Positions 4,784 through 44,898 of a stretch of 64,000 bases of DNA are shown here, piece by piece. The first letter of the stretch is position 1; the number at the start of each line of letters is the position of its first letter. The stretch is from Eledone cirrhosa. Its lineage: Eukaryota. The stretch spans positions 54,126,001-54,190,000 of the forward strand of contig OZ024741.1 of NCBI GenBank assembly GCA_964016885.1. The letters are read 5' to 3'. The position numbers were made by a program, and so were the translations under genes. The notes under the pieces are model-generated. The model was not told the origin of the DNA. It did no database searches and saw only the letters and a program-made list of their open reading frames with translations.

Positions 4784-4835
<52 letters not shown>

Positions 4836-5055
4836 AGTGATGATGCTGATGATGATAATGATAATGATGGTGATGATGATGTAGATAATGATGCTGATGA
4901 TGGTGGTGATGATGATGATGGTGATGATGATGAGGATGATGATGATGATGCTGAAAACTGTGATGATAATGACAATGATGATGATCATGATGATGATGAT
5001 AATGATGGTGGTGGTGGGTGCATTGGTGATGATGGTGACGATGATGTTGATGATG
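4300..5055. repeat. Trinucleotide microsatellite, (GTT/ATT)n grading into (GAT/GGT)n
   Basis: Visible directly. Confidence 0.95.
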
Positions 5056-5068
5056 AGAAGAATAAGGA

Positions 5069-5430
5069 GGAGAGAGAAGTGCTGCTCCCCAGTACATTTT
5101 TTGAAAGGTGGGTGAATGTGGCGAGAATGGCCCGTGTGAGTGGGCCTACTCTGGTCATGTGGCTGTAGGTAAGTAAATTTGAGGAGGAGAGGGGTGCCCT
5201 TCCAGGGTGCTCTTGAAGCGTCGGGTCGTTCAGGATTGGTGGGGTACCTCAGCGAACCCTGGGTGGTCATCCCCACTATTGGGGAATTTTTCTTGTATTT
5301 TTCTTGTAACTTTATTATTGTTATTCATATTGTTTACTCGATTTTTCTGTAAAACCCCACTGTCCCAGTCCTTTGTATTGTTCCCTATATGTCAGCCCTG
5401 GTGGCCAATAAAAGAAATCATTATTATTAT
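5069..5430 (+). mobile_element. 5'-truncated 3' end of a Tx1-like LINE (family of copy B)
   Basis: Aligns by eye to ~16997-17360 (ORF2 end, 3'UTR, AATAAA, ATT tail). Confidence 0.93.
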
Positions 5431-5431
5431 C

Positions 5432-5525
5432 AGGTTAACTTTGCCTTTCATCCTTACGGGGTCGATAAAATAAAGTACCAGTAATGTACTGGATAATTGC
5501 TGGCCTTGTGCCAAAAGTAGAAACA

Positions 5526-5526
<1 letters not shown>
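5432..5526 (+). mobile_element. 3' half of tRNA-derived SINE family 1
   Basis: ggttaactttgcctttcatcc...gtgccaaaagtagaaacaatt matches full copies at 24463, 37477 and 44128. Confidence 0.9.

Positions 5527-5573
<47 letters not shown>
5526..5573. repeat. (ATT)n tract directly upstream of LINE copy A
   Basis: Visible directly. Confidence 0.98.
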
Positions 5574-5781
5574 GGCGACCTACGTAGTAAATCGTATCAT
5601 CGTGAGCTCCGCAAAGGTTTGTTATTTTCGTTTGTTAAAAATTGCCATTTATGGAAAATTTTATTGTTAACTGTTTATAAGCACACATACATTGTTTTCC
5701 GAAAAGGACACCCAAAAAGATTGGGGCCTTGTGCCCAAAATTTTAACTTTTATTATTATCCAAAAATTTCTTTAAAAAAAA

Positions 5782-7759
5782 ATGGCTAATTCCCCTCTGC
5801 ACGAAGCAGCTGAAAGCCTTCCTCCAAAAATAACACCTCACACCGACACCACCATTGTAAATGTTACTACGTTTGCCAACACAAAAAAAAATATAAGCAG
5901 TAGCAATATTTTAAATTTGTCTCAGGCAGACATTCATTTCCCGCCATTACCAATGACTGCAGGTGTTAAAGCCTCCACCACCACCACCACCGCGACAACC
6001 ACCACCCCCACCACCACCGCGACAACAGAAACAAAAGAAGAAAAAAATAAATTAACTCGTGATGTCGAAATGAAATCAAGCAAAATGGACTCTTCCGCAC
6101 CAAAGACGACTGACATCACCACCACCACAACTGAAACTAAAATTAAGATTAACACAAATAACGATAGCAACAACAACAACAATGACATTATAAAACCGAC
6201 CCTCAGTTTCGCCATCGTAGCAAAACAATTCGAAGCGTTCACGGTAACTCAAGAGGATTTAGAAAATGCCAAACTAATGGTAAAGAAACATGGGTACAGG
6301 GTTAGCCTCAACCCCCCACCTAATAAAATGGAGCATCGGCGCCTATGCACCGTGTCGTATAGAACAATAAATGTAAAATCGCGCCGAGTGGAACGGGCAT
6401 CCGAGTCCCAAATCCAAAAAGCTTTGGGACATGTGTGGGCAAGAAAAACCCACATCAGACGTGGGCAAAAGTATGGAACCGTGGATGTGTTCTTTGAAAC
6501 ACCAGAGGAGGCTAGAGAACACTCCATGGCCCCATTAAAAAGTGACAAGCTATTGTGGCCAGAGACTCGTAAAGATCAGGGTGACCCACGTTCCACCGGC
6601 CATCGAAATTCCCTGGCTAATAGCGGCTGTCCTCGCCGGCATCGAAGCCAACACGAAAATAATAGCAATAGCAAAAGAAAAGCAGGAAAACTGGTCCGGA
6701 TCTGGGATGGAGCACCTAATCCAAGCGGACCAAAAAAGCATTGAGGAGATCCCAGAGGTAATAGACCTCACTGACGGCAGCCACCTCACCGTAATTGTCG
6801 AGGGCAGAAGACCTAGGTGTGTCGTTTGTGGTGAAGGAACCCACCTAAGGGCTTTCTGCCCTCAGGCTAAAAGGTTGAGGCCACCTCTCCTACCCACCCC
6901 AGTGACACAACCATCAACACCACCAGTAGCAGAGATAGCAGCAACAACTGTAGCAGCAACAACAGAAGCAACTATAACAGCAACAACCCCAGCAACAGTA
7001 GCAAAACCAACACCACCACCACCACCAGCAAAACCAACACCGCCACCACCCAACGCTTCAGAACTAGCACCAGCGCCTACATCATCCACCACGCCACAAC
7101 CAAAACTAACGGCTGTGGAGTATTTTCCACTCCCCGGCCTATCACAACTGGAAACAGATTGTGACGACGAGGAGTGGGAAACGATATCCGGAAAAAAAAA
7201 AAGAAACCAAAAAAGAAAAAATTCTCTTCCTTCCCCCTCCAAAAACAAAATACAGAGGGAAACAAATAAATTAAGAAACAAAAAAGTTAGGACAGATATG
7301 CCACCATCCACACCAGCATCACCAACCCCATCAACCCAAACACCAACACCATCACCATCATTAACCCCAACACCACCATCACCTACACCACAAAAGTCAC
7401 CAAAATGCGAAACAGAAACAAACCCACAACAAACGCAAACAAAACAAAACAACCAAAACGATACACACTACACAGCATTAAATTTGAACAACAAGCAATT
7501 ATTACACTACATCCAACACAACACCAGCATCACAGAAAAAGATTACACAACAACCCCAAAATTCACACCACCTCCACACATACAAATCACTCGCATCTCA
7601 CAGAAAACGTACATAACACTAAAACAAAAATTCCCCAAAGACATCGGAGACTTCCGACAAGCACTCTCCAGGAGGATTTATAAGGACATCCTTCCTGAGG
7701 AGGCCACAAGCAGTGAAAAGGATGGAAAAACCGTCCTTCCCCTACAAGAAGTAAGGTAA
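5782..7759 (+). pseudogene. LINE ORF1 (RRM-like region, CX2CX4HX4C knuckle, Pro/Thr-rich tail), frameshift near 6550
   Basis: ORFs 5782..6744 and 6542..7759; CVVCGEGTHLRAFC; similar to ORF1 of copy B. Confidence 0.88.
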
Positions 7760-7793
7760 GTGGTCTTTCCCATCTTTTCCACTCCTTTTCAAC

Positions 7794-10700
7794 ATGACCT
7801 CACTCAGAATAGGCAGCATAAATGCGCGTGGCTTGGGGTCGTCATGGAAGCAGGGCCACCTGCTCAACGACCTCAGGTCACTAAACATAGATGTAGTGGC
7901 CATCAGCGAGACCAGAATCTCCGAAGCACAGGCTTTCGCACCGATCTTCGGCGGCTACGATGTGTACGCATCTCCCAGCCGTCAGGGATCGGGGGAGGAG
8001 TTGCTGTGCTTTTTCGGAGAGGTTTGGATCTTGCCATACGGGCCATCTTCCTGGACCCAGAAGGTAAGTTGGTGGTGCTGGACGTGTCCAGCGGAGACGG
8101 GCAAGCTTTCAGGTTAGTGGCCGTCTATGCCCCGACAGGAGCAGGGCGGCCTGATTTCTTCCGGCGTCTGGAGACTTTTCTTGGAACGTCCCGCTCTTTA
8201 GTGTTAGTGGGCGACTGGAACGGGATCTTAGATGCACGCTGGGATTGTGTGGGATTAGTGGATAGGGAAGGAGGGTGCAAGAGTCTCACCAACCTGCTCA
8301 GACGTTTTGAACTGTCTGACAGGTACCGAATGGATTTCCCGAATGTACCAATGTGGACTTGGACAAATCGCATAGGGTCATCCAGATCATATCTAGATAG
8401 AGTATTTTGTAGGGAAATAGATAGGTCTAGCATAGGCTGTCCACAATTCAAGATAGTCAGCTACGCGGACCACAAATTCGTGATCTGTGTGCTTGACTTA
8501 GATAGGCTTCATAGACAAGGACCCGGCTACTGGAAGCTAAACGCGTCCTTACCAGCGCGCAAGGCCTACAGAGACCGGATTAGCGAACTAGTTAAGCGGG
8601 CGTTGACGGGGGCCATCGTCAACAACAAGTGGTGGTTTGTTCTGAAATGAGCAATTAGAATAGAGTCCATTAGGTTTAGTAAGACTTTAGCAATAGAGAA
8701 AAATAGAGCAGAGGGAGAATTAGTTAGAAAATTAGATGAGGCGCTTAGCAAAGGCATCGCGACCGACGTACTTGCGGCGAAATTGGCCCTTGACCAATTC
8801 TTCAATGCAAAGCACGAAGGCTGCGTTGTGAGAGCTAGGGTGCGTGCTCTCAGACACGAGGGGACGAAAGCCGTTCAATGGGCCCGAGTGGCGGAGGCGC
8901 GTCGTGGCAACAAAGCCACGATCCGGTCTTTGGTGGACCACGACGGGCGCATGCTACTCGATCCCGGGCAAATGTGTGAAGCTTTTCAGCGACACTTCGC
9001 TCAACTGTTCGGGGGCAGTGGCGGGCCGGATCGAGGGATGGACTTTAGTGTCTACCTCGACGGACTGCCGCGGCTTTCGGCCACTGAGGCGGAGTGTTGC
9101 GAAAAGCCGATAACAACCGCTGAAGTACGGGATGCAATGACTAGTTGCACAAGGGGTAAATCGCCTGGTTTGGATGGTCTGCCCTATGAACTTTACGTAC
9201 AAATGCCAAACTTGTTCGGAGGCCTCTTGGCGGACGTCTACTGCAACTGGCAACAGAACGGGAGAATTCCCAGCTCTGTGAGCCGAGGAGCGGTGGCGCT
9301 GCTGAGAAAGGATCCGAACAAGGGGGATAACATAGATAATTTTAGGCCCATAACTCTGCTAAACACAGAGTTCAAAATTTTGGCCAAGGTGCTAGCAAAG
9401 AGGTTGGCGCTTGTCGTTGGTGGTCTGGTGGGAGAGGCACAGACATGCGCCATTCCCGACAGATCCATCCACGACAACCTCCACCTCATGCGATACATCG
9501 TAGAGAGGGTAGCTAAGGAACCTGGCACGGGTGGGTCTTTGATCAATTTAGATCAGTCGAAAGCCTTCGATAGGGTCGACCATCGTTACCTAGCGGCAGT
9601 CCTGAGGGCGGCTGGCTTTGGGCCCGTCTTCAGAGGCTGGATCGCTGCCATGCACAGCGACATCTGCTCTGTAGTGAGAGTGAACGGTCACCTTTCGGAA
9701 CCGTTCAACATCATGCGCTCGGTCCGCCAAGGATGTCCCCTCTCGTCCCTATTGTACGTATTGACTCTCGAGCCATTACTGCACAAACTGGAGACGTTGA
9801 GGGGGGTCCCGCGCGAACTAGGATGCGGAAGATCCGTGTCAGCATATGCCGACGATGTCACCGTAGTGGTGTCGAACGCCAAACACATCGAGGCGATCGG
9901 CACTACACTAAGAGAATACGAAGCGGTGACAGGAGCAATGATCAACCAGAAAAAGTCAGTGGGCCTGCAGCTCGGCACCTGGAGAGGCAGGTCCATGCCG
10001 TCCAACAGCGTCGTCGGGCGCTGGACGGACGGACCGGTTAAATTGTTAGGGGTCTGGTTAGGTCCAGACCTCCAGACGGACAAAAACTGGGACGAGGTGA
10101 CGAGCAGGGTGGCTTCTCTCACCCAGAAATGGGCCGAGAGGAAGCTATCCCTGAAAGGTCGAGCGGAGGTGGCGAATGCGTACATCGCATCCGTCATCTA
10201 CTACCGCCTGACCGTCGTACCTTGTCCTAAGCCCCGCCTGACTGCGGTGGAGCGTTTGCTCTTTCGCTTCTTGTGGAAGGGACGCGCTCCGATGGTCAGG
10301 CGGTCCATCTGCTGTCAACACCCGCTACGTGGAGGGCTGGGCATGCCGTGGCTGATGATGTTCAGACACGCGCTCAGGCTACGACATCTCCACCTCTTCC
10401 TCGACGGTGATCAGGTGTGGTCGCCGTTTGCAAGACACGTTTTTCCCCAGCTCGTCTCCTTGACGGAGCTGCAGTCCTGGGTCAAGCGAAGACCGAGAGG
10501 GAGCGCTTGGAGACTGGAATGTCTTCAGGCGCTCACAGCCCTCGACCAATCGGGCAATGTGATCGGTGGAAACTCCACCTTGGCGTTCTATAGGGGATTA
10601 GTGGAGGGGAAGAGCGACGACGTACTTGGAGAAACTCTAGGCGTCGACGAAAATCAACTAGCCAATCTCTTCGGAAGGACTTTCGGGCCGGGGCCTATGG

Positions 10701-11212
10701 ACAACTTCCAGAAATCCCTGGCCTGGCAGTGATACCGAGGAGCTTTGCCAGTTCGGGATAAACTCTACAGGCATGGAGGTGCCGTCAGCCGGGCATGTCC
10801 GAGATGCGCGCAGGGCGACGAAACCGTCCTGCACGCACTCGTCCAGTGTCCGAGCATTGCTGACTTGTGGGTTTATGTCGAACACCTGCTGTCACGTGTA
10901 GGACGGATCCAGCTATCAGCTGAGTCCATCGTGAGGATTGCCCCGCCCCCTTCCTTTAGCCTGGAAGGGCAGGCAGTTTTTATCTGTCTGGTGGCCATGG
11001 CGAAAGAGATAGTATGGTGGACACGTTTGAAAGGGCTGAAGACGAGCACTTACCTCTTCGGTGATGCCCTGATTAACTTTTTCAAATTTCATTTGAAAAG
11101 GAAAATCAGGGTAGAGAGGGAAGTGCTCTCTTCCCAGCATTTTGTTGAAAGATGGGTGAGAGAAGCAAGTATGGCCCGAATGAATGGGCCTTCTCTGAGT
11201 ATGTGTCTGTAA
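7794..11212 (+). pseudogene. LINE ORF2 (APE endonuclease, RT, C-terminal Zn finger); frameshift near 7990, stops at 8648 and 10730
   Basis: SINARGL, VYAP, GDWN, ADHK, KAFDRV, QGCPLS, YADD, CPRC...H...C. Confidence 0.93.
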
Positions 11213-11461
11213 ATTAAAGGTGGAAAACTGGGAGAGGGCACTTGCCCTGGTGGTCAGGGCCACTGTGGTCTTTTAATGGGCTTTCTCCACAAATGTCCCT
11301 TGGAAGTCCCCTCCCTATTGGGGAATTTTTCTTTGTTATTTTATTTCAACCTCTGTTTTTTTACACGCAGAAATGCCCATTTGTACCGTCCTGTATTGTC
11401 CTGTACTGTCCTTAATGTCTACTTTATGTGAACCCTTGTGGTTAATAAAGAAAACAAAAAC

Positions 11462-11475
11462 ATTATTATTATTAC

Positions 11476-11521
<46 letters not shown>
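11462..11521. repeat. (ATT)n spacer between LINE copies A and B
   Basis: Visible directly. Confidence 0.98.
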
Positions 11522-11732
11522 GACGAAAGTGGATGTACGTTTTTTTGAAGCTCCGTGAGTAAGCAATTTTTTGAGGATTAATTGTGGAGAATTGTTTATT
11601 TTTTGTACCGCTGAAGCATTATAAGACATTCATTTGTATCCTGTGAAGGAATAACTCATAATATTTGGGCCTTTTGGCCCAAATATTTGAACTTTATTTT
11701 GGAAAAATAATAATTTTTTTTCTCAAAAAAAC

Positions 11733-13646
11733 ATGGCGGAGCCACGCCCCCTAGAGGCGGGTTTGCTGTCGTGCAACGGCGACTTGAGCGTTGAGAGGAG
11801 AGGTGGGGCGAGGAGCGCCACCAGCACGAGTGTGAGCAGCGACAGTGCCAGCACCAACGGGCCGAGCGGCGCGGAAGGTGGTAACAGCGACAACACCAAC
11901 ACCAACAAGCCGAACAGCGCAGAAGGTGGTAATAGCGAGAGCACCAACAAAACGAACAGCACAGAGAGTAATATTAGCGACAGCAGCAGCACCAACAAGG
12001 CCAACAGCACAGTGGGTAACCGCGACACAGGGGAGAACAACAACAGCAATAGCAGCAGCAACACCAACAAGAACAACAACAGTGACAACACCAACAAGAA
12101 CACCTTCGCTGCTGTGGCAGCGGCTAAAAGGAGACCATGCTACAGCATCGACTTAACCAACAGAGAGGAAAAGTTGGCCCAGGCCTGGAAAATCATAAAT
12201 CAAGAGCAGACCTGGGCAAACTTAACTGTCCCGGCAGAAGCCATTGAGGCAGTGGAAAAAAGAACGGTGCATTTCAGATGCATCTCAGTAGAGACAAAGA
12301 GGGCAGCGATAATCGCCCAAGCTGATATAGAAGCCGCACTGAAATACATCAGAGAGGACACAGACTTCATAGAGAGGGGCAGGCAATACGGCACAGTTTC
12401 GGTGCTGTTCAAGTCTGAAGCCCTCGCTGTGAAGCATTCAATGACCCCTTTCAAAACCAGCAAGGTCATAATGTACCCCTCCCACATGGGAAAACGAATA
12501 GCACGTGTGCGCATTCCCAGGATTCCACCAGGACTTGATATGTGGTGGCTCCTGGGTTGCGTAATCGTGGAAGGAACGGATACAGTCCCGGTAGAGGCAA
12601 CGAGAACTGCCAGGGACGACTGGTCCGGGGTTGATCTGGAGATACTGCTCCAAATCAGACCCGAAAACGTAAAAGCAATCCCGGACCACATCCGCCTCCA
12701 AAACGGGAGGGTGTTGCATATAATGACTGAGGGCAAAAGGCCGCATTGTTTCCTTTGTGGGGAAACGACACACTTGCGAGCCTTCTGCCCTCAACTGCCG
12801 AAAAGCGCAAGGGGTCGAAAGATTCCACTGCTGGCGACGCCGGGACAAGGACCACCAGCAACACCGTCAACAATGGAACCACCAAAATTGCACACCCAGG
12901 GGGGAAACGAGGAAAGCTCTCCCATTCCCCCTCCCCCCCAAAATACACACACGAACAAGAACATAAACACTCACTCAGACACAAACACGCTCACAGCCAC
13001 AGACCCCTCATCCTCCAGCAGTGAAGATGAGGGAAAACCAAAGTCCCCCAAAATACAAAAAACAAAACACAAAAAAAAAAAAAGAAATCCACAAAGCACA
13101 AACACCCCCACAAAAAAAAATACACACACCACCCACACAAACATTTTCCCCACAGCATCACCAACACAACCACCAAAATCCCCCAAACGCAAACAAGCTA
13201 AACAGACACAAGAACAAATAGACACACAAACATCAGAAACTACAGACACCCCACCCACAACAAACGCAGACACAATAGAAACAACACTAACAAAGCTATC
13301 ACCACCACAATCACACGAACAAATAAAACCCGAGCAACAAAACATTAAAAACTTCGTGCTTGCCAGAAGGGCCAACAAGGAATTGATGGCCCATGTAGCA
13401 CGAAGCACAAACATCGAAAAAGACGGGGAAACATTTGAAGCGAGCACATTTCGCGTACCAGATAATTTGCTTCTGATGCGAATGTCGCTCGCTTCATACA
13501 AAGAAATTCGAAAGAGCTTTCCTCGGGATGTGGGAACCCCGAACGTAAAACCCACGTCAAGACTATTAAAGGGGTTCCCAAAAGAAACCCCACAAACCAT
13601 GGAGGTCGAACCACCCGACCTTCACAAGACCCCGGAAGGTAAGTAA
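11733..13646 (+). CDS. LINE ORF1p nucleic-acid-binding protein (CCHC zinc knuckle)
   Basis: Uninterrupted 637 aa; CFLCGETTHLRAFC; low-complexity N and C regions. Confidence 0.9.
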   Translation: MAEPRPLEAGLLSCNGDLSVERRGGARSATSTSVSSDSASTNGPSGAEGGNSDNTNTNKPNSAEGGNSESTNKTNSTESNISDSSSTNKANSTVGNRDTGENNNSNSSSNTNKNNNSDNTNKNTFAAVAAAKRRPCYSIDLTNREEKLAQAWKIINQEQTWANLTVPAEAIEAVEKRTVHFRCISVETKRAAIIAQADIEAALKYIREDTDFIERGRQYGTVSVLFKSEALAVKHSMTPFKTSKVIMYPSHMGKRIARVRIPRIPPGLDMWWLLGCVIVEGTDTVPVEATRTARDDWSGVDLEILLQIRPENVKAIPDHIRLQNGRVLHIMTEGKRPHCFLCGETTHLRAFCPQLPKSARGRKIPLLATPGQGPPATPSTMEPPKLHTQGGNEESSPIPPPPQNTHTNKNINTHSDTNTLTATDPSSSSSEDEGKPKSPKIQKTKHKKKKRNPQSTNTPTKKNTHTTHTNIFPTASPTQPPKSPKRKQAKQTQEQIDTQTSETTDTPPTTNADTIETTLTKLSPPQSHEQIKPEQQNIKNFVLARRANKELMAHVARSTNIEKDGETFEASTFRVPDNLLLMRMSLASYKEIRKSFPRDVGTPNVKPTSRLLKGFPKETPQTMEVEPPDLHKTPEGK

Positions 13647-13675
13647 ACCTTTCCTCCACCATTCATCCTGCCAGC

Positions 13676-16600
13676 ATGGCCATAAGAGTAGGAAGTTTAA
13701 ATGTTCGTGGCCTGGGGTCGCCCTGGAAGCAAGGTCACTTGCTCAACGACCTCAGGTCACTAGGAATGGATGTAATTGCCATCAGCGAGACCAGAATTTC
13801 CGACACACGCGCACTGGCGCCGATTTTCGACGATTATCAGATCTTTGCATCTGTTAGTCGGCCGGGAATGGGAGGTGGAGTGGCTGTGCTGTTTAGGAAA
13901 TGTCTGGATCTCGAGGTAAGGTCAATCTTCCGGGATCCTGACGGAAAGTTGGTGGTCCTGGACGTGAGCAATAGCGAAGGTGGTGCCTTTAGACTGGTGG
14001 CCGTCTACGCCCCTACTGGGGCCGGTCGGCCGGACTTCTTTAGGCGCCTGGAAAACTTTCTGCTTACGTCTCGCCCTTTACTGTTAATAGGGGATTGGAA
14101 TGGCATCTTAGAAGCACGCTGGGATTGTGTGGGAGTATCTGATAGGAGCGGGGGGTGCAAAAGCCTCAAGTACCTGATCAGCCAGTTTCAACTGTCTGAC
14201 AGGTACCGACTAGATTTCCCTAATGCGCCAGTATGGACCTGGACCAATCGCATAGGGTCATCTAGATCGTACATAGATAGGATTTTCATTAGGAAAAGAG
14301 ATAGAAATAGTGTAGGATGTCCACATTTTAAAACGGTTGCCTATTCAGATCACAAGCTTGTGATCTGTATGGTCGACCTAGATAAGACACGTAGGTTAGG
14401 ACCCAGCTACTGGAAGCTAAACATGTCGTTTCCGGCACGTAAAGCTTACAGGGACCGGGTCAACAACTTAGTTAAGCAAAAGTTGACAGGGGGGGTTGTC
14501 AACAACAGGTGGTGGGGGGCACTCAAAAGAGAGATTAGAGCAACCTCGATAGGATTTAGCAAAGAAGTAGCAATAGAGAAAAATAGAAAGGAGGAGGGGC
14601 TGATAGCTAAGTTAGACGAGGCTATTTGTAGTGGCATTGCAACAGACGTGCTAGCGGCGAGAATGGCACTAGACCATTTCTTCAATGCGAAACACGAAGG
14701 TTGCATTGTCAGAGCTAAGGCGCGTGCTCTGAGGAACGAGGGAACCAAAGCTGCCCGATGGGCTCGCTTTGCAGAGACGCAGCGTGGAAATAAAACCACA
14801 ATTCGGTCTTTGACGGATCGAGATGGACACGAACTGAGCGATTCCAAGCAGATGTGTGAGGCCTTTCGCCAGCACTTTGCTCGATTGTTCGGGAGGATGG
14901 GTGAGTCGGAGACGGCGGCGGACTTCAGTCCCTACCTCGACGGCTTGCCACGCCTCTCGACGGCCGACGCTGAGCGCTGCGAAGAGCCGATAACATCAGC
15001 CGAAATTCAGGACGCCCTTGTCGGCTGCTCGAGTCGCAAGTCACCCGGTTTGGATGGTCTGCCCTACGAGCTTTACGTAAATATGCCAGACTTGTTCTCC
15101 GATCTCCTCGAAGCGCTCTACTGCAACTGGCAGCAGAACGGGAGCATTCCCAGTTCTGTGAGCCGTGGCGTAGTGACGCTGATAAGGAAAGACGAGAACA
15201 AGAGGGACACACTAGATAATTTCAGGCCCATAACCCTGCTCAACACAGAGTTTAAGATTTTGGCCAAGGTGTTAGCGAAAAGGTTGGCGCTTGTCGTCAA
15301 AGATTTGGTTGGGGAGGCGCAAACTTGCGCAATCCCGACCAGGTCCATACACGACAACCTCCACCTCATGCGATACATCATAGAGAGGGTTGGGTGCAAA
15401 CCTGGCTTCGGTGGGGCTCTGATCAATTTAGATCAATCGAAAGCATTCGATAGGGTCGACCATCGGTACTTGGAGGCTGTCCTCGAGGCGGCTGGCTTCG
15501 GCCCCGTCTTCAGAAGCTGGATCGCTGCAATGTACAGCGGCATCCGCTCGGTGGTCAAAGTTAATGGCCACCTCTCGGAACCGTTTCAGATCTCTCGATC
15601 GGTCCGTCAAGGGTGCCCTCTCTCCTCACTTCTGTACGTATTGACTCTTGAGCCTCTACTGCGGAAGCTGGAGTTGTTGCAGGGCATCCCGCTCGAACCG
15701 GGACGTAGAAAGGCTGCGTCCGCTTATGCGGACGACATCACCGTGATGGTGTCGGACACCTCGGAAATCGAGGTGATCCGCACCCATTTGGAGGAATATG
15801 AAAGGTTGACGGGAGCAAAACTTAACCCGGAAAAGTCGGTGGGCTTGCAGCTCGGCACCTGGAGAGGCAAGTCCATGCCGTCCAACAGCGTCGTTGGGCG
15901 CTGGACAGACGGACCGGTAAAGTTGCTCGGGGTTTGGTTCGGACCAGACCTCCAGGTGGATAAGAATTGGGACGAGGTGACGAGCAGGATAGCCAACCTC
16001 ACCCAGAAATGGGCTGAGAGAAAGCTATCACTGAAAGGGCGGGCGGAGGTGGCGAACGCGTACATCGCGTCCGTCATCTACTACCGCCTGACCGTCGTGC
16101 CTTGCCCCCGTCCACGCCTCGCCAATTTGGAACGGCTCCTTTTCAAATTTTTGTGGAGGGGACGGGTCCCGTTGGTGAGGCGGTCCATCTGCTGCCAGCA
16201 CCCTCTTCGTGGAGGGCTGGGCATGCCGTGGCTAATGATGCGCAGACATGCGCTGAGGCTGCGACATCTCCAGATATTTTGCCTAAACGGTGAACAGGTG
16301 TGGTCGCCGTTTGTTAGACGGGCCTTTCCGCAGCTCATCTCTTTGACTGAGCTGCAGTCCTGGGTCAAGAAGAGACCGAGACTGGGCGACTGGCATCTGG
16401 AATGTTGCCAGGCGCTCACTGCACTCTGCAAGGTGGGCAATGCGGTCAGTGGAACTTCCACTCAAGATTTCTATAGAGGATTAGTGGAGGGCAAGTGCGA
16501 TGACGTACTAGGAGAGGCTCTGGGCGTCAACGAAGTAGAACTGACCAGTATGTTCCGGAGGACTTTCGAGCCGGGGACGATGGATAACTTCCAGAAATCC

Positions 16601-17095
16601 CTCGCTTGGCAGTGCTACCGGGGGGCGCTGCCGGTTCGGGATAAACTCTACAGGCACGGAAGTGCTGTCAGACGAACCTGCCCGAGATGCGCGCAGAGCG
16701 ACGAAACCGTTCTGCACGCACTCGTCCAGTGTCCGTGCATTGCTGACTTGTGGGGTTATGTCGAACAGCTATTGTCGCGTGTAGAACGGATCCGGCTATC
16801 GTCCGAGTCCATAGTGAAGATTGACCCGCCGCCTTCTTTTGGTCAGGAAGGGCAGGCAATTTTCCTCTGCCTGGTGGCAGTAGCGAAAGAGGTTGCATGG
16901 TGGACCAGGTTGAAAGGACTGAAGACAGACACTTTTCTCTTCGGCCAATCCCTCATCAACTTCTTCAAGTTTCACTTGGAAAGGAAGGTGAGGGTGGAGA
17001 GAGAAGTGCTGCCCCCCAGTACATTTACTGAAAGGTGGGTGAATGTGGCGAGAATGGCCCGCGTGAGTGGGCCTACTCTGATCATGCGCCTGTAG
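13676..17095 (+). CDS. LINE ORF2p: APE endonuclease, reverse transcriptase and Zn finger (Tx1-like)
   Basis: Uninterrupted 1139 aa; SLNVRGL, GDWN, SDHK, YWKLN, SPGLDGLPYE, QGCPLS, YADD, CPRC..ETVLHALVQC. Confidence 0.96.
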   Translation: MAIRVGSLNVRGLGSPWKQGHLLNDLRSLGMDVIAISETRISDTRALAPIFDDYQIFASVSRPGMGGGVAVLFRKCLDLEVRSIFRDPDGKLVVLDVSNSEGGAFRLVAVYAPTGAGRPDFFRRLENFLLTSRPLLLIGDWNGILEARWDCVGVSDRSGGCKSLKYLISQFQLSDRYRLDFPNAPVWTWTNRIGSSRSYIDRIFIRKRDRNSVGCPHFKTVAYSDHKLVICMVDLDKTRRLGPSYWKLNMSFPARKAYRDRVNNLVKQKLTGGVVNNRWWGALKREIRATSIGFSKEVAIEKNRKEEGLIAKLDEAICSGIATDVLAARMALDHFFNAKHEGCIVRAKARALRNEGTKAARWARFAETQRGNKTTIRSLTDRDGHELSDSKQMCEAFRQHFARLFGRMGESETAADFSPYLDGLPRLSTADAERCEEPITSAEIQDALVGCSSRKSPGLDGLPYELYVNMPDLFSDLLEALYCNWQQNGSIPSSVSRGVVTLIRKDENKRDTLDNFRPITLLNTEFKILAKVLAKRLALVVKDLVGEAQTCAIPTRSIHDNLHLMRYIIERVGCKPGFGGALINLDQSKAFDRVDHRYLEAVLEAAGFGPVFRSWIAAMYSGIRSVVKVNGHLSEPFQISRSVRQGCPLSSLLYVLTLEPLLRKLELLQGIPLEPGRRKAASAYADDITVMVSDTSEIEVIRTHLEEYERLTGAKLNPEKSVGLQLGTWRGKSMPSNSVVGRWTDGPVKLLGVWFGPDLQVDKNWDEVTSRIANLTQKWAERKLSLKGRAEVANAYIASVIYYRLTVVPCPRPRLANLERLLFKFLWRGRVPLVRRSICCQHPLRGGLGMPWLMMRRHALRLRHLQIFCLNGEQVWSPFVRRAFPQLISLTELQSWVKKRPRLGDWHLECCQALTALCKVGNAVSGTSTQDFYRGLVEGKCDDVLGEALGVNEVELTSMFRRTFEPGTMDNFQKSLAWQCYRGALPVRDKLYRHGSAVRRTCPRCAQSDETVLHALVQCPCIADLWGYVEQLLSRVERIRLSSESIVKIDPPPSFGQEGQAIFLCLVAVAKEVAWWTRLKGLKTDTFLFGQSLINFFKFHLERKVRVEREVLPPSTFTERWVNVARMARVSGPTLIMRL

Positions 17096-17348
17096 GCTGG
17101 TGAATTCGAGAAGGAGAGGGGTGCCCTTCCCGGGTGCCCTAGGAGCGTCGGGTAGCTCAGGACTGGTGGGGTGCTTGAGTCAACCCTGGGTGGTGATCCC
17201 TCTTATTGGGGAACTTTCATTGTTGTATTTTTATTGTTATTTTGTTTTTTTGTTATTTATACTTACTCGATCTCTATGTAAACCCCCACTGTCCCTGTCT
17301 ATTGTGTTGTCCCCTATATGTCGGCCCTTGTGGCCAATAAATGAAATC

Positions 17349-17395
17349 ATTATTATTATTATTAGTAGTAGTAGTAGTAGTAGTAGTAGTAGCAA

Positions 17396-17641: not shown

Positions 17642-18105
17642 ACATGCATTGAAACGAAGTGTCGTTCCAACTGCTAGAAACAGCAGTCAAATCACTGTTT
17701 TACTACATGTATATATTGTAATGAAGTGTCCTATGTGTAGTCGTTCCAACTGCTAGAAACAACAGTCAAATCAGTTTTACTACATGTATGTATTGAAACG
17801 AAGTGTCCTATTTGTAGTCGTTCCAACTGCTAGAAACAACAGTCAAATTACTGTTTTACTACATGTATATATTGAAACGAAGTGTCCTATGTGTAGTCGT
17901 TCCAACTGCTAGAAACAGCAGTCAAAATCACCGTTTTACTATATGTATGTATTGAAACGAAGTGTCCTATTTGTAGCCGTTCCAACTGCTAGAAACAACA
18001 GTCGAATCACTGTTTTACAACATGTATATATTGAAATGAAGTGTCCTATGTGTAGTCGTTGCAACTGCTAGAAACAGCAATCAAAATCTTCGTTTTACTA
18101 CATGT
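17642..18105. repeat. ~79-bp tandem minisatellite, about 6 units
   Basis: caactgctagaaac recurs about every 78-80 bp. Confidence 0.92.
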
Positions 18106-18457: not shown

Positions 18458-20381
<1,924 letters not shown>

Positions 20382-34258: not shown

Positions 34259-35345
34259 TAGAATCAACTAAAAAAAATCAAGAAAATTAACTGGTCAATA
34301 GCTAGACTCTGGAGATTAATACAAATATAAATTAGCGAGAATCATATTTCGGCTATTGGAAATTAGCGAAAAACAACTTCCGAGATGTGTGGCAAGCGCT
34401 CAATAAATTCTAATGAACCAGAGCTACAACATACGTTAAAAGGCCAAACCCTCTGAGACGATGGTTAAACCATTATCCGCACAGCCATAGAAACGACCAA
34501 GTAATTCGGGTCAAACAAATTAAAAAAATGTAATTGAAAAGTTTACCCGGACCTCTGGATGGTTGGTAAAAATCCAGCATTTGGGTTTCTGCGACTCCTA
34601 AATCAAGTACTGTCCGCTTAGACAAATAATGTTAGGCTTCTGGTAATATTATTGAACAAGGATGTCACTTTCTCAACAGGCTTTTAGTTCAAGTGCCAGG
34701 CCAAGGATTGACCGTTACCAATACCCACGTGGGGCTCGACAAGGGAGGCAACCCTTATTTTTGGCGGATGAATTCAGTATGTGTATATTATTGCAAAATT
34801 GCAAAATATCACAAAACGAATTAAGTTCTCAACAGAATGGTTTTAAAGTTAACAAAAGCTATTCATCAGTCAATAGAATCAACTAAAAAATCAAGAAAAT
34901 TAACTGGTCAATAGCTAGACTCTGGAGATTAATACAAATATAAATTAGCGAGAATCGTATTTCGGCTTTGGAAATTAGCGAAAAGCAACTTCCGAGATGT
35001 GTGGCAAGCGCTCAATAATTCTAACTAACCAGAGCTACAACATACCTTAAAAGGCCAAACACACTGAGACGATGGTTAAACCATTATCCGCAAAGCCATA
35101 GAAACGACCAAGTAATTCGGGTCAAACAAATAATAAAATGTGATTGAAAAATTTACCCGGACCCCTGGATGGTTGGTAAAAATCCAGCAGTTGGGTTTCT
35201 GCGACTCCTAAATCAAGTACTGTCCGCTTAGACAAATAATGTTAGGCTTCTGGTAAGATGATTGAACAAGGAAGTCACTTTCTCAACAGGCTTTTAGTTC
35301 AAGTGCCAGGCCAAGGATTGGCCGTTACCAATACCCACGTGGGGC
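34259..35345. repeat. Partial tandem duplication, period ~614 bp
   Basis: tagaatcaactaaaaaa...cccacgtggggc occurs twice. Confidence 0.9.
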
Positions 35346-38211
35346 AGAGCACGTATTTTCGTTTCCCAGAGCACGTATTTTGCTTCTGACAACGCAGCCT
35401 TCATTCTTTGCGTCGAACAACTGGTCCAAGGCCGTTCTCGTCGCTAGCAGGCTGGCTACGTTGCCACTCCTAAGTGCCTTTTCTACTTTATCTACCAGTT
35501 CCTTTTCGGTTTTAGTTCTATCTAACACTAATTCTTTACTAAAAGCTATCGAGTCTAATCTAACTGCCCTCTTGAGAGAGTACCACCATCTGTTGTTGAC
35601 AATGGCCCCCGTCAAGTGCTGCTTAACTAAAGTGCTAATATGTCTATTGTAGGCTTTGCATGTCGGTAACGACAAGTTCAGCTTCCATTAGCCGGGTCCC
35701 AGTCTATGGGTTTTATCAAGGTTGACTACGCAGGTCACTAATTTGTGATCTGAATAGGCAACCATGAACATTTGTGAACAGCTTAACATGTTCCTATCCT
35801 TCTTTCTAACTAGAACCCTATCTAGGTACGATCTAGATGTTCTCCTACGATTAGTCCACGTCCACAGTGGCACAGTCGGAAAATATAGTCGATATCTATC
35901 GGCCAGGTCAAATCGGCCGATTAACTGTTTGAGGTTGTTACACCCCTCTCTATCGGGACATGCTCCCACATAGTCCCAACGTGCATCTAGGATTCCATTC
36001 CAGTCCCCCACTAACAGCAGGGAGCGGGACGTTCCCAGAAAAGTCTCTAGACGTTTGAAGAAGTCTGGCCGCGGTGTCCCGGATGGGGCATATGCGGCCA
36101 CCAGCCTGAAGGCTCCACCTTCACTACCGTCAACGTCTAGGACCACCAGTCGACCCTCCGAGTCCAGATGTACGAGGTCCAGGTGTTTCCGCAGCAAAAC
36201 GGCAACCCCACCCTCACCTCCCGGCTGACAGAGAGATCTGCGTAGATCTCAAAGTCGTCGAAGATGGGGGCCAGTTGTCGCTCACTGTGGATCCTGGACT
36301 CGCAAATGGCTACTACATCCATACTGTGCGACCTGAGGTCGTTTAAGAGTTTGTCCTATTTACAGGGCATCCCCAGGCCGCGTACATTCACACATCCAAC
36401 TCTTACATTGGCCATGTTGGTGCTGAAAAGTTAAAAAAAGAGGAAAAGAAATCACTCACCTCTTCGTCTCCTGGGGACCAGGCTGCATAATTTCCATGGA
36501 GGTGTTGGAGGGGTTGTTTGGTGTGGTGGTGGTCTCTGGAGGGGTGGGGACAGAGATGTTTTATGGGGAGGGGGTGTCTGATGGGATGGGGGTGGGTGTG
36601 GGGAAACATTTTAACAGGACTCGATTGTAGGGTTTGACGCAGGGGTTACCTACGTCGTTAGGAAATTTTTCTTTTAACTCTTTATGTGTGTCCATGGAGG
36701 TCCTAATCATTTTAAGATTAGGATTCTCCGAAGAGTGTGTAAAAGTTTTCCCTTCGGACTCCACCGAAGGGTTTTTATATATGGTGTCTGTTAAAGTTTT
36801 ATTGTTAGTATTTATGTAGGTGTAACTTTTTTGTTGTGTTGGGTTGCTTTTTGTCTGTGGTTCTTGTGTGTGTTTACGTTTTGTAGTAAGTGTTTTGTTT
36901 TCAGTAGGGGGTGTTTTTGTTTTTGTTTTGCTGTTTGCGTCGCTTGTGTTGGTGTTTGTGTGTTTGTTGCATTTTTGTTTGTGTTATGTCTTTTCTTTTT
37001 CTTTTTACTGGTCGGAAAGGCTCTCCCTCATTGTCACTAGGTGACGATGATGAGGTCTCATCCGTGTTGTTGGGGAGGGGTACATTTTGGGGAGTTGTTA
37101 TGTGTGTGGGTGTTTCTGGAGTTGTTTTAGGTGGAAAGGGGTTGGGTGGGACTGTGTTTGTCGTTTGTTTTGTTGTCACTATTTTTTTATGTTGTTGTTG
37201 TTGTTGTGGTGGTGGTGGTGGTGATTGTTGTGTTGGTGTTGCAGGTGTTGGCAGTAGTGCCTTTTTTAGGCTAGCAAGCTCTCAGGTGAACCCTGTTTAA
37301 GCAGTGGTAACATGAGGGCCGCCTACCATCGATCGAAATGTTTATGTATATAAGCCCATCCAGCAACACACGTTCCGGGATCCTAGCTATTCGTTCTGGT
37401 GTCATTTGGACCAGAACTTCCAGGCTAGTTCCGCTGAACAGGTCGCCGGAGGACTTACCTACCGATATTATATAGTGGCAGTATCGGTAGAGAGTTGGAC
37501 ACCATGCTTTGAAGCATAGAGTTACGTCCCTTTATGATCTGAGTTCAAATCCCGCCGAGGTTAACTTTACCTTTCATCCTTACGGGGTCGATAAAATAAA
37601 GTACCAGTAATGTACTGGTTGATTGCTGGCCTTGTGCCTAAAATAGAAACAATTATATAGTCTGTTTCGAGGTTTAAAAATCCACATAGTACCCACCAAA
37701 TATCAATATTTGGTGTGATACTTTGGATTTTTATTTTCTGTGTTCTTTTCCCCATGTATGTGGGGAAAAAGGCGAACAGCGGTGACACAATTGGCGACAC
37801 AGAATATTTCTGTTCCCTCAATTGGTCTTTCATTAGAATGGATAAACTCCCGTAGAGTCTACCCTTCTGAATAAAAGCAATGTCTTTTAAGGCATTTTTT
37901 AAAGCCAACTCAATTTCACCTTGTGAAAGTTGAGTCGGTTTTCGTGTTTTGTTTGAGATTGTCCTGAAAATCAAAGTTTTCAAGGCAGCTTCTCTTCGCA
38001 AATCTGGGGGAGAGTTTATGGAGAATAATCCGTTCACCCCAAAAGTTACATATTGTCTGGCGTTATTCATAAGCTTATTTGCATTTGAAATATCTACCGG
38101 TGTGTAGCTTACCGTTTTCTTTACGGTTTGCGCAAATGATATTTTGTCGTTTACTTCCTTGTTGCAGTTATTGGTCTTGTTGTTGTTATTATTGTTCTTG
38201 TTTATTATTAT
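35346..38211 (-). mobile_element. Decayed Tx1-like LINE copy C (ORF1 remnants and APE part of ORF2, ATG at 36415)
   Basis: MANVRVGCVNVRGLG, FRLVAAYAP, GDWNGILDARWD, SDHKLV; ORF1 KEKFPNDVGNP. Confidence 0.9.
37477..37651 (+). mobile_element. SINE family 1 inserted in ORF1 of copy C, 10-bp TSD attatatagt
   Basis: TSD at 37467-37476 and 37652-37661. Confidence 0.92.
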
Positions 38212-40537
38212 GGTCGCACATGTGAGAAGACAGTACAAATCTGCGGTGGAAAAGATTCGTAACTTTAAGCTGTTTTAAAGTGTAATTTTTTGTATTTTCT
38301 TGTCGTTAACGAAACGTAAGGTACACATCTTGATTTAAAGAGAGGGATACCTCTCAATATTCGGGCTATAAGCCCGAATATTCAGATTTATTTTTAAAGA
38401 CTTCGAAAAAAATCGCTTTCCCACCAAAAAAGATTATGGAAATGTTCGACCTTGAAACGGTAAACAACGTTCAGGTCAAAAGTTTAAAGGCAGCCACTGT
38501 AGATTTCACCACGCTACGACGGCTACAGTCATGCCTGTCATCCACTCTACTGAATGTGAAGGCAAAACTCAACCTCCTGTGATAGCAGCAGTATCATCTG
38601 AAAACGACATCACCACCACCGCCACCACCACCACAACAACAGCAACTCAGAGCAATAACGACAATAATACCGACAGCAAGAATGACAACACCAACAATAA
38701 GAGCATCAGAAGCACCACATTTGCTGCAGCAGCAGCAAAAACAAAGCGCTTATTGAATATTGATATTGATATTAGCGATAAAGACGAACAGTTGGCCAAA
38801 GCGTGGAGGCTAATTAAACGGGAGAAGTCCTGGGCAAACCTGACCATCCCGGACGAGGCAATAGCGGCCATGCAGAGGAGGACGGTGTTCTTTCGATGCA
38901 TTTCGGTGCAGACACGAAAAGTGGAACTTGCCAGCCAAGCAGAGGACGAGGCTGCTTTGGAGTACATCGGAAGTAACATAGAGTACAAAGCAAGAGGCAA
39001 ACAGTTCGGTACCATCTCGGTACTGGTCAAAACCGAGGCCCTCGCTATTAAGCACTCGGTGACCCCCTGAAGAACGGAACGCATTATCATGCATCCGTCC
39101 TACATGGGTAAAAGGACAGTAAAGGTACGCATTCCCAGCATCCCACCAGGAATGAACATATGGTGGCTGCTGGGATGCGTAATCGAGGAGGGGACAGACA
39201 CTATCCTCCTGGATATCAAAAGGACAGAGAGAGAGGACTGGTCCGGAATGGATTTGGAGATTATTCTCCAAATGAAACCGGAGGACATGAACAACATCCC
39301 GGATTTTTCTCGCCTGCAGGACGGGACAACAATCCAACTAATCATTGACGGAAGAAGGCCACGCTGCTTCGTCTGCGGGGAAGCAACGCATCTGCAAGCC
39401 TTCTGCCCTCAGCGCAAAAATGCAGGGGGTCGCAAACCTCCTTTGTTGCCAACGCCAGTGTCAGCACGGAGAGCTCCACCACCACCACCAACAAAATCAC
39501 GGACACCGACATAAAAAAACAGCCGGATCACCACCAACACCAAAACCAATCCAAGGGGAAAACGAGGAAAGCTCTCCCACTCCCCTACCCCCCAATTATA
39601 CACATAGATAAAACAATAAACGCACACACAGACACAGAGACACTCACAGCCACAGACCCTTTGTCTTCCAGCAGCGAAGATGAAGGAAAACCCAAAAGTG
39701 TAAAAAAACAGATAAAACTCACAATAAAAAGCCCCAACAAAACACAAAAACATACACAACAAAAAATACAGACACCACTAACGCAAACACTTCCCCAATA
39801 ACATCATCACCAACAGCAACATCGACACCACCTTCACCATCCCCGAAAGGCAAACAACCTAAACAAACACAAGTACAAATAAACACACAAATACCTGAAA
39901 TTGCAGACGCCACACCTACAACAAACACAGACATACCCGAAACAACACCACCAAAACCATCACCACCACAGTCACCAAAACGAAAACAAATAAAACCACA
40001 CCAACAAAATGTTAAAAACTTCGTGCTTGTCAGAAGGGCCAACGATAAACTGATGGCCCTCTTAGCACGAAGCGAGGACATTCAAACAGAGGGGGAGATT
40101 TTTGAAATGAGCATATTTTGCGTGCCAGAAGATTTGCTTCTGGTCCTAATGTCACTCAATTCCTTCAAAGAAATTCGAGAGAGCTTTCCTCAAGTCGTGG
40201 GAACCCCGAATATGAAACCCACATCAAGACTTTTAAAGGGGTTCCCAAAAGAAACCCCACCAACCATGGAGGTCGAACCACCCGACCTTCACAAGACCCG
40301 GGAGGTAAGTAAACCTTCCCTCTCTCTCTAAGCTTACCAATATGGCCATATTAAGAGTAGGAAGTTTAAATGTTCGCGGCCTGGGGTCACCCTAGAAGCA
40401 GGGTCGCCTGCTCAACGTCCTGAGGTCGAATTTCCGACACGCGCGCACTAGCCCCCAATTTCAACGACTATCAGATCTTCGTATCTGTTAGCAGGCCGGG
40501 AATGGGGGGTGGGGTGGCAGTGCTGTTTAGGATCTGG
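38212..40537 (+). mobile_element. Decayed Tx1-like LINE copy D (5'UTR, ORF1, start of ORF2), 3'-truncated
   Basis: ORF pieces 38531..39070, 39089..39514 and 40023..40331 resemble copy B ORF1; CFVCGEATHLQAFC. Confidence 0.9.
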
Positions 40538-40564
40538 ATCACACACACAGACAGACACACACAC

Positions 40565-43500: not shown

Positions 43501-44127
43501 GGCGCATGGCTTAGTGGTTAGAGCATTGGGCTCATTATAAAATAATAATTATTATTTCATTATTTATTATGAAGTCGAAGCAATAACGATATCAGATACA
43601 ATGAAAATACGTATAGCAACTTTTACATAATAAATAGAACTTACTGAAGTATAATCTTATTGCTTTCTACTTCATTATATTTTTATATATTGTTTTTTTT
43701 TAATGTTTGCATATTTATTTAGACTCTCCACTCCCATAACTTTATTTCCAAAAGATTATTAAATCTGAGAAAAAAAGACAAAAGCACAAAATCAAGCAAT
43801 GAGAAAATAGGATAGGTGTAAGGAAGGGCTGATCTGACTGTATGGGAAAGTAAAGGAAAGTATTATGAAAGCCATAAATGAGAGGAAAACGATGGGAAAT
43901 TCAAGGACTCTGAGGCCACAGAAGACAGGGAGACGAAGGTGATGGGCTCGGGGCATACGAGCTGGTGGTGTTGGGGCTGCAACCCGCAGACAGAACTTCA
44001 AAATTATTTCCGCGGTCAATGGCCAGCGACACCCGCTGCAGCACCAACCCCACCTCGCGTGGCTCCTTCCTCAGGCAAGCTTCATTATCATACCAATACT
44101 CAAAACAGAAATCATTATTGCACCAAA

Positions 44128-44720
44128 GGGCGGTGGATTGGCAGTATTGGTAGAGGGTCGGACGCCATGCTTTGACGCATAGAGTTACAGCCCTTGCCAT
44201 TCTGAGTTCAAATCCCGCCGAGGTTAACTTTGCCTTTCATCCTTACGGGGTCGATAAAATAAAGTACCAGTAATACGCTAGGTAATTGCTGGCCTTGTGC
44301 CAAAAGTAGAAACAATTATTACACCAATGTGGTGAATTGGTAGTATCGGTAAAGGGTTGGACGCCATGCTTTGTAGCATAGTTACGTCCCTTTACGATCT
44401 GAGTTCAAATCCCGTCGCGGTTAACTTTGCCTTTCATCCTTACTGAGTCGATAAAATAAAGTACCAGTAATGCACTGGATAATTGCTGACCTTGTGCCAA
44501 AAGCAGAAACAATTATTACAGCAATACAGGCAGTGATTGGCAGCATCGGTGGAGTGTCAGGTACCATGCTTTGCAGCATAGTGTTCCGGGCCTTTACGTT
44601 GAGTTCACATCCCGCTGAAATCAACTTTGCCTTTCATCCTTACAGTGTCGATAAAATAAAACACCAGTAATGCGTTAGGGTATTTGCTGGCCTGGTGCCA
44701 ATAGTAGAAACAATTATTAT
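44128..44720 (+). mobile_element. Three head-to-tail SINE family 1 copies
   Basis: Units at ~44128, ~44328 and ~44528, each ending agaaacaattatt. Confidence 0.92.
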
Positions 44721-44898
44721 GCCAATATCCAAATATACACAGACCTACCCGATGCTATATGATAGGAAGAAGGATATATCGACGATTAATCCTTAATCCT
44801 GGTTACACCAGTGAATATTGATCAATGTTGGCGACTGAAAATCTAATCACTGGCTGATTAACACGACATAATCACAATATATATATATATATATATAT

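Follow-up and report, generated by a model that had tools for sequence, protein, structure and literature searches.

Head-to-tail retroposons joined by ATT runs in Eledone cirrhosa point to a Tx1-type LINE lineage with a probable preference for ATT sites

Background

How do distinct retroposons come to lie head to tail, in one orientation, with little between them other than runs of ATT? The question is raised by positions 5066-17363 of a 64,000-nucleotide stretch of the Eledone cirrhosa genome (the window). Insertion into microsatellites has been described for the APE-type LINEs Kibi, Koshi and the crocodilian (TTCC)n/(TTTC)n Tx1 elements (PMC4494074, PMC3812793), and the reported Tx1 targets include TC, TTC, TTCC and TTTC repeats (PMC4494074). 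The present elements would resemble these in target habit; they differ in the ATT unit and in having cephalopods as their named relatives, whereas the known targets are pyrimidine-rich and the hosts vertebrates. The mechanism of microsatellite targeting is called not well understood in PMC3812793. Our reading, to which we assign a probability of roughly 0.7, is that a cephalopod lineage of Tx1-type LINEs prefers sites in ATT phase and leaves an ATT run with each copy for reuse. The choice between target and element-encoded tail, as posed by an initial annotation, is too sharp, the repeat probably being both.

Results

Four distinct retroposon pieces make up the stack, with ATT runs as the joints.

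5066..5419, + strand: F, the 3' end of a B-family LINE truncated at 5' (last part of ORF2 plus 3' UTR), 84% match to 16993-17359; tblastn match to B residues 1104-1139
5420..5430, + strand: (ATT)3AT, at once the F tail and the DNA 5' of the half SINE (junction sequence)
5433..5525, + strand: 3' half of a dispersed SINE, 95% match to the full copy at 44221-44321 and to other copies; predicted CUUGU stem-loop at its end (fold)
5526..5573, + strand: (ATT)16, tail of the SINE and 5' flank of A (junction sequence)
5574..11461, + strand: copy A, full-length at 5,888 bases but with broken ORFs (ORF and alignment analysis)
11462..11521, + strand: ATT tract of 20 units, one of them ACT, ending A and flanking B on its 5' side (junction sequence)
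11522..17348, + strand: copy B, whole, open in both ORFs
11522..11732, + strand: 5' UTR of B, with a palindromic hairpin predicted at about 11660-11687 (alignment, folds)
11733..13646, + strand: ORF1 of B, 637 aa, open; low-complexity arms on either side of two RRM-like domains and a single C-X2-C-X4-H-X4-C knuckle
13676..17095, + strand: ORF2 of B, 1,139 aa, open; APE endonuclease, RT (YADD) and zf-RVT, catalytic motifs present
17096..17348, + strand: 3' UTR of B, with a predicted stem-loop GGCC-CTTGT-GGCC at 17323-17335, then AATAAA
17349..17363, + strand: (ATT)5, tail of B, followed by (AGT/AGC)n (junction sequence)

Order, orientation and junctions agree with the earlier description of pieces in one orientation joined by (ATT)n. 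The linkers comprise 3-20 units, and their depiction as the only separators holds in the main, the exceptions being one additional C between the F tail and the half SINE and the ACT unit between A and B. Both full copies start right after ATT (att|ggcgac in A, att|gacgaa in B) and end in ATT, with tails from 11462 and 17349, as had been claimed; the 5' junction of F is without ATT. Every internal junction is a repeat of 11-60 bases, and the one between A and B is read from the assembly sequence. Decay changes along the stack, from the F fragment and the SINE through broken A to open B, an order that fits insertion into successive tails. Very large trinucleotide tracts flank the stack on either side.

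Copies A and B represent divergent families, as the annotation had it. Their ORF2 sequences are 77% identical in DNA and 74.7% in protein, and two alignable pieces of ORF1 protein show 28-36% identity, a divergence that rules out tandem duplication. In A, ORF1 (5782-7759) has lost its frame near 6550, and ORF2 (7794-11212) is frameshifted near 7970-7994 and interrupted by stop codons at 8648 and 10730. A palindromic 5' UTR hairpin of different sequence is predicted by folding in A and in a third copy, C. A kinship between the A hairpin loop and the SINE tail was considered and taken as chance, the loops of B and C being different.

The domain build fits the designation of these elements as Tx1-like. 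With two ORFs, an N-terminal APE domain and an RT nearest to L1, B can be placed by sequence in the L1 group of non-LTR retrotransposons. Pfam recognises Exo_endo_phos, RVT_1 and zf-RVT in its ORF2, and the best match among solved structures is human L1 ORF2p (E 2.8e-57), with R2 at E 2.9e-22. A model of ORF1 built from 144 sequences reaches pLDDT 91, against an unusable 35 for the single-sequence fold, and its best Foldseek match is the tandem RRM of IMP3 (E 6.8e-06). The first modelled domain matches the La RRM with Z 9.0 and rmsd 2.5 over 81 residues; the second matches RRM and ACT-like folds about equally. A CCHC knuckle is present in A, B and C. Among the 144 ORF1 family members zf-CCHC was found in 19 and Transposase_22 in none, and a Type I ORF1 (RRM and CCHC) rather than Transposase_22 is consistent with Tx1 elements of non-mammalian animals as described in PMC5203782. 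Predicted domains and modelled folds thus support assignment to a Tx1-type lineage.

In a tree of 121 RT sequences (125 candidates, 5 dropped for low RT coverage, B added) that holds no named Tx1 elements, A and B group with a cuttlefish protein at a support of 0.993. The named relatives are from cephalopods, Argonauta hians (59%) and Acanthosepion pharaonis (49%). A metagenome search yielded three distant short contigs of 25-30% identity, viral and prokaryote collections held no related loci, and a word search with ORF1 returned no match. At 5.8-5.9 kb, A and B come near the L1-Tx1 elements of Octopus vulgaris, a comparison of length only; 13 recently active families with 421 insertions, 2.29 Mb in total and about 5.4 kb each, are reported there (PMC13282606).

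Two further LINE copies meet outside the stack.

38212..40540, + strand: copy C, a third family (5' UTR, ORF1 and start of ORF2; 3' part lost), 71% to B in DNA and 54% in ORF1 protein
35343..38211, - strand: copy D, a fourth family, cut in an Asn-rich ORF1 stretch at the start of C; a SINE lies inside it at 37476-37651

The head of C directly follows ATTATTAT (38204-38211), eight bases of ATT phase, at a boundary that rests on weak alignment of the UTR and lies one base off the phase seen in A and B. This flank is no LINE tail; it is the site where the Asn-rich stretch of D is cut. An origin of C and D by twin-priming inversion is ruled out, as they are different families with overlapping ORF1 regions. 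The endonuclease hairpin loop of D is unlike that of A and B, a point against the favoured reading.

ATT-phase DNA precedes all three family heads (A, B and C). The window has six LINE 5' junctions in all; the other three belong to the truncated pieces F, D and E, which have no 5' ATT in their own polarity. Positions following (ATT)3 number 38 of 127,982 on both strands of the window and 3 of 93,200 outside the stack, where eight upstream bases of ATT phase occur at 30 of the 93,200. The window holds 144 perfect di- or trinucleotide runs of at least 14-15 bases. Three of these are ATT/AAT, all of them tails within the stack, and none of the three heads follows any of the 141 others. The proposed specificity for (ATT)n was overstated, given the mere eight bases before C, SINE insertions at ATTA in non-microsatellite sites and the junctions of F, D and E. 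For comparison, PMC4494074 treats a family as microsatellite-specific when the target repeat flanks more than 20% of its copies in the genome. The broader proposal of an ATT-directed, array-building lineage of L1/Tx1 type gains from copy C, from a tail-to-head joint in raw reads and from SINE target duplications.

The whole SINE measures about 190 bases and is dispersed. Outside the stack, four of the eight copies tested, at three loci, abut target duplications of 9-15 bases, all starting with ATTA at non-microsatellite sites; the remaining four showed no duplication. One locus holds an array.

44113..44727, + strand: three stacked SINE copies, with spacers that start with ATTATT and resemble repeated target duplications

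Neighbours in this trimer are 79-86% alike, against 91-95% between copy S1 and three dispersed copies, which disfavours a recent tandem duplication; an older one may have formed the trimer. ARAGORN found no tRNA and Rfam gave no match at 44090-44760. Such absence is usual for a diverged SINE head; the CORE-SINEs of octopus, OR1 and OR2, combine a tRNA-derived head with a CORE domain.

The SINE is likely a partner of the LINE lineage, because their 3' ends share a predicted CUUGU stem-loop. Its tail aligns in register with that of B at the extreme end over a shared stretch of about 30 bases, with a score matched by 11 of 17,388 background windows and 2 of 5,000 shuffles. The match is clear to B and F and weak to A (341 of 17,388 background windows as high). 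Between A and B the predicted stem is retained through two changed pairs. A LINE-like loop is predicted in five of nine SINE folds, one of them with an altered loop base. Stringent L1-clade LINE/SINE pairs of maize, sorghum and Chlamydomonas are described with a common 3' end and a stem-loop kept by compensatory changes (PMC3747384); those have a different loop, and the algal pair ends in poly(A), whereas the candidate pair described here comes from an animal and ends in (ATT)n.

Raw reads contain a comparable junction. In a run from another sample or study, 248 reads with 28 start places join 17360 to 11501, the shorter side reaching up to 68 letters. At least one of these reads consists of a B-family tail, 33 bases of ATT as (ATT)11 and 47 bases of a B head. 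Since the A tail is only about 56% like that of B (49 of 87 columns), this joint is not the window's own A-B junction. Its origin may be a single locus, a chimera formed during PCR, or an exchange in which the ATT tracts at either end of one copy recombined. ATT runs beyond the reference tail in a further 1,842 reads with 93 starts. None of the 24 loose read ends listed, with 10,319 more in the table, lies at the B head. No RNA run was among those listed as containing the sequence, which says nothing about expression. A contig from a different run spans 11501-12476, 5' ATT included, with a depth of 6 and an identity of about 99%; it was left out as independent support because it is possibly the same insertion.

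Discussion

Insertion could proceed by an ATT variant of the L1 poly(A)/T-tract route. The transcript would end in the CUUGU stem-loop and (AUU)n, the latter encoded by the element or read through from the flank. The APE domain would nick the AAT/TAA strand, and the freed 3' end would pair with the (AUU)n tail and prime reverse transcription. Target duplication together with the tail would place ATT on both sides, slippage might lengthen it, and later copies and the partner SINE could reuse the run, always in the same orientation. Overlap of tail and target is known in L1, CR1, L2 and RTE (PMC6007223). Within the reading of an ATT preference, we lean slightly away from strict recognition of microsatellites and towards a short ATTA(TT) preference combined with pairing of the tail and primer, in which long tracts would act as hot spots.

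If ATT were an element-encoded tail with little insertion preference, the stack would be a chance pile-up in a gene-free, microsatellite-rich region. All three long ATT runs in the window are indeed element tails, so the elements clearly produce the repeat; the stack lies between the large trinucleotide tracts, and F, D and E are without 5' ATT. This explanation is nevertheless improbable, as it must accommodate three insertions exactly into tails of 11-60 bases, in one orientation and with the bodies uncut, as well as the flank of C, the four ATTA-starting SINE duplications and the independent tail-to-head joint. Slightly less probable still is that the array arose only once the copies were in place, through recombination or deletion involving the ATT tails of separate copies, or that an assembler joined contigs through ATT repeats. 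Each internal junction is pure repeat of 11-60 bases, that between A and B comes from the assembly, and unequal crossing-over can produce a joint between two B copies. An ATT-mediated fusion of tail and head, however, presupposes that the head already had ATT in front of it, and that is just what targeting proposes; C and the SINE duplications are left unexplained, and head-to-tail joints are present in raw reads.

An alternative for the SINE only, and one that can hold alongside an ATT preference of the LINE, is mobilisation by another LINE such as Dong-R4, which would make the SINE evidence and the common tail coincidental. Insertion of Dong into TAA repeats is reported, a snail being among the hosts (PMC3812793); TAA is ATT on the opposite strand. 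Dong is also present and recently active in Octopus vulgaris, with 1,129 recent Dong-R4 insertions (PMC13282606). The stretch shared by LINE and SINE is only about 30 bases, in a comparison with the tails of A, B and F. The in-register alignment at the extreme end, rarely equalled by background windows or shuffles, the same CUUGU loop and the stem kept between A and B through changed pairs speak against coincidence, and we consider this alternative rather unlikely, though less so than the preceding two. Copy B itself is no member of Dong/R4: R4 elements are described with a restriction-like endonuclease (PMC4640811), whereas in B an APE domain stands at the N terminus of ORF2 and ORF1 is a separate frame. 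The common target of Dong and the B lineage would be a convergence.

A preference for ATT sites introduces no new principle: microsatellite-targeting Tx1 elements, TAA targeting by Dong and stacking at a regenerated target are already published. The last is described for SINEU-3 and Tx1-Mar of crocodilians, which share a target preference and form tandem copies around a target duplication by sequential insertion (PMC4494074). The present array would likewise grow at a target restored by each insertion. SINEU combines an snRNA head with terminal poly(A) and inserts into a Mariner element, whereas the SINE here ends in (ATT)n and has an apparent 3' stem-loop in common with the LINE. The literature searched held no ATT- or TAA-targeting Tx1 element; Repbase, Repbase Reports and Kojima and Fujiwara 2004 lay outside that search and may already list one. 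If the preference is real, ATT would be an added target for APE-type sequence-specific retrotransposons, and microsatellite targeting by Tx1 would reach cephalopods, converging with Dong on one repeat. It would also supply a partner LINE for a common SINE and a source for one class of ATT microsatellites, with a bearing on marker design and assembly.

A more tentative combination, which we hold somewhat below even odds, is that a cephalopod Tx1 lineage has exchanged the poly(A)/T-tract logic of L1 for (AUU)n/(AAT)n and a stringent CUUGU stem-loop. Such a lineage would be chiefly responsible for the long ATT microsatellites of these genomes, make its own target, build arrays of mixed families and be the partner of an abundant tRNA-type SINE, giving an animal Tx1-SINE pair with a common tail. 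Copy B, open in both ORFs, offers a direct test case for the shares of the endonuclease and of tail-primer pairing in targeting. One read contig from a separate run reaches a depth of 1,760 over the 5' end, whereas the eight pieces listed from that run lie at 3-11, a contrast that hints at many young copies, depths not being copy numbers.

Structure of the stack

The initial annotation had described a LINE fragment, half a SINE and two LINE copies, A and B, stacked and joined by ATT, and the junction coordinates in the window confirm this arrangement.

LINE and SINE components of the stack (5066-17363, forward strand) and two LINE copies outside it
5066-5419, +: F, 5'-truncated 3' fragment of a B-family LINE, followed by (ATT)3AT
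5433-5525, +: 3' half of a dispersed SINE, followed by (ATT)16
5574-11461, +: LINE copy A, followed by a 20-unit ATT tract with one unit ACT
11522-17348, +: LINE copy B, followed by (ATT)5, then (AGT/AGC)n
35343-38211, -: D, fourth-family LINE copy, 3' part missing
38212-40540, +: C, third-family LINE copy, 3' part missing

The 3' end of B is 84% identical to F. ORF2 of A and B share 77% DNA and 74.7% protein identity, and their ORF1 proteins 28-36%. Among 144 perfect runs in the window that reach at least 14-15 bases, ATT runs are rare: there are three, each a tail within the stack. Directly upstream, positions 1-5056 hold ~4.5 kb of GTT/ACT/ATT triplet repeat and then 0.5 kb of GAT/GGT repeat; this tract is free of LINE insertions and has (ATT)3 just once.

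Identity of the LINE families

Both ORFs are open in B. Its ORF2 (1,139 aa) carries APE, RT and zf-RVT domains with catalytic motifs intact in sequence, and its best solved relative is human L1 ORF2p. B ORF1 has no Pfam match; 252 relatives were found, and a model predicted from 144 aligned sequences (pLDDT 91) matches tandem RRMs, followed by a CCHC knuckle that is kept in A, B and C. An RRM/CCHC ORF1 in non-mammalian animals is consistent with Tx1 (PMC5203782). Copy A is broken: both ORFs are frameshifted, and ORF2 also has two stops. Among the close relatives, those that carry a name come only from Argonauta hians (59%) and Acanthosepion pharaonis (49%), which makes an octopod host likely. 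In an RT tree of 121 sequences, no named Tx1 element among them, A and B group with a cuttlefish protein (support 0.993). The assignment to the Tx1 clade rests on architecture, and we refer to A and B as Tx1-type. In L1, target choice is shaped by the endonuclease hairpin loop (PMC1950540). A and B have the same loop and D a different one; by itself, the loop predicts nothing about the target.

C and D, lying head-to-head, represent two further families of the A/B lineage, and a 479-base direct repeat of 95% identity (34257-35345) adjoins the broken 3' side of D. The 5' UTRs of A, B and C each contain a palindromic hairpin (~5718-5746, 11660-11687 and 38356-38382) ~40-50 bases before ORF1, with the structure kept and the sequence different, a possible promoter or RNA signal. 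A 73-base internal ORF2 fragment (20380-20452), 92% like B, ends at an (AT)n run and adjoins a short inverted duplication (18459-18625 / 20217-20383).

ATT as target or as tail

We favour, at a probability of about 70%, target-primed reverse transcription at ATT-phase sites as the process that built the stack. A nick on the AAT strand would allow the primer to pair with the (AUU)n end of the RNA, the insertion would be left with ATT on either side, and later copies would reuse this ATT in unchanged orientation. Tail-target overlaps are described for L1, CR1, L2 and RTE (PMC6007223).

That ATT is only a tail and the stacking fortuitous appears unlikely. Against a target role, no ATT is found at the 5' junction of F, nor 5' of D and E, a further LINE piece, all three truncated and degraded, and solitary non-ATT heads could be common among the loose ends beyond the read matches listed. 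The head of C at 38212, placed by 5' UTR alignment with the shared hairpin, is preceded by ATTATTAT, with no LINE tail before it, and starts where D is cut within an Asn-rich ORF1 stretch. Outside the stack, 30 of 93,200 positions have eight such ATT-phase bases upstream. The C boundary could shift by a few bases and the surrounding DNA is TTG/TTA-rich, so this flank is suggestive of ATT targeting. Formation of the stack by recombination or misassembly through ATT also seems unlikely. In raw reads of run X24, 17360 is joined to 11501 by 248 reads from 28 starts (shorter side up to 68 letters), and at least one read comprises a B-family tail, (ATT)11 and a B head. The tail of A is too unlike that of B (49 of 87 columns alike) for such reads to have aligned to it, and the joint is therefore an arrangement different from that of the window. 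The joint may come from a single locus, be a chimera or have arisen by recombination; even if it recombined, the B head is still preceded by ATT.

Over the B 5' end, read depth spans orders of magnitude between three organism labels: ~6 in run X6, thousands in X1 and much more in X5. This hints at bursts confined to certain lineages, although depth is not copy number.

The SINE and its 3' stem-loop

The SINE copies also bear on ATT as target or tail. Abutting duplications of 9-15 bases flank four of eight SINE copies compared outside the stack, at three loci, and all four begin with ATTA; none was found at the other four copies. At 44113-44727, three SINEs are stacked with repeated spacers starting ATTATT. 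They resemble one another less (79-86%) than the first resembles three dispersed copies (91-95%), and divergence increases from first to third. The SINE sites and C point to a short ATTA preference aided by tail pairing more than to strict microsatellite recognition; these data do not separate the two.

A stem-loop is predicted just before the tail in B (GGCC-CTTGT-GGCC), in A (AACC-CTTGT-GGTT, with both partners of two pairs changed), in F (a 3-pair version) and in the half SINE (TGGC-CTTGT-GCCA). When the last 30 SINE bases are aligned to the B tail, 11 of 17,388 background windows and 2 of 5,000 shuffles score as high; the corresponding counts are 14 and 9 for the F tail and 341 and 142 for the A tail. 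The shared stem-loop was spotted post hoc among few sequences, and these predicted folds suggest stringent 3' recognition with the SINE as partner, as in some plant and algal L1-clade pairs (PMC3747384). In A, B and F, AATAAA comes after the stem, and the transcript may therefore carry poly(A) instead. Mobilization of the SINE by another LINE such as Dong, which targets TAA (PMC3812793), is less likely than not and would be compatible with target priming at ATT; the SINE is the probable partner of the A/B-type lineage.

Relation to known elements

Tx1 families target (TC)n, (TTC)n, (TTCC)n and (TTTC)n, and SINEU-3 shows sequential insertions around a target duplication (PMC4494074); PMC10088271 cites a Tx1 specific for telomeres. 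In Octopus vulgaris, 13 L1-Tx1 families have been active recently, and the text and supplement searched do not mention their targets (PMC13282606). The portions consulted of PMC9115989, PMC4758252, PMC4824008, PMC5753468, PMC4640811 and PMC11481361 name no ATT-targeting Tx1 family or SINE partner. Our literature search, whose reach excluded Repbase and Kojima and Fujiwara 2004, found no ATT-targeting Tx1. The novelty likely lies in the ATT preference of a Tx1-type lineage, as Tx1 microsatellite targeting, TAA targeting and sequential stacking are already known. The lineage had initially been proposed to be an ATT-specific, array-building Tx1; ATT preference and stacking are partly supported by C, the X24 joint and the SINE duplications, and strict (ATT)n recognition is slightly less favoured than a short ATTA preference. 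The lineage is likely ATT-preferring, array-building and Tx1-type.

Other repeats and reading frames

Further features of the window
17661-18111: 79-base tandem repeat, 5.7 copies
42236-43471 and ~45590-45850: long direct-plus-inverted (fold-back) repeats with (AT)n flanks, related to 63553-63958
46025-47980: 3' part of a different LINE, presumably RTE-like, with an RT match, then a PHD-finger match, and a (GAT)n tail
54156-56020 and 61220-62008, +: stop-free frames of 327, 309 and 262 codons, no Pfam match
26441-26710, 28853-29089, 40832-41148, 44877-45195 and 56617-56895: dispersed ~250-300-base repeat with an internal palindrome

Each copy of the palindromic repeat sits inside (AT)n, and it may be an AT-targeting element.
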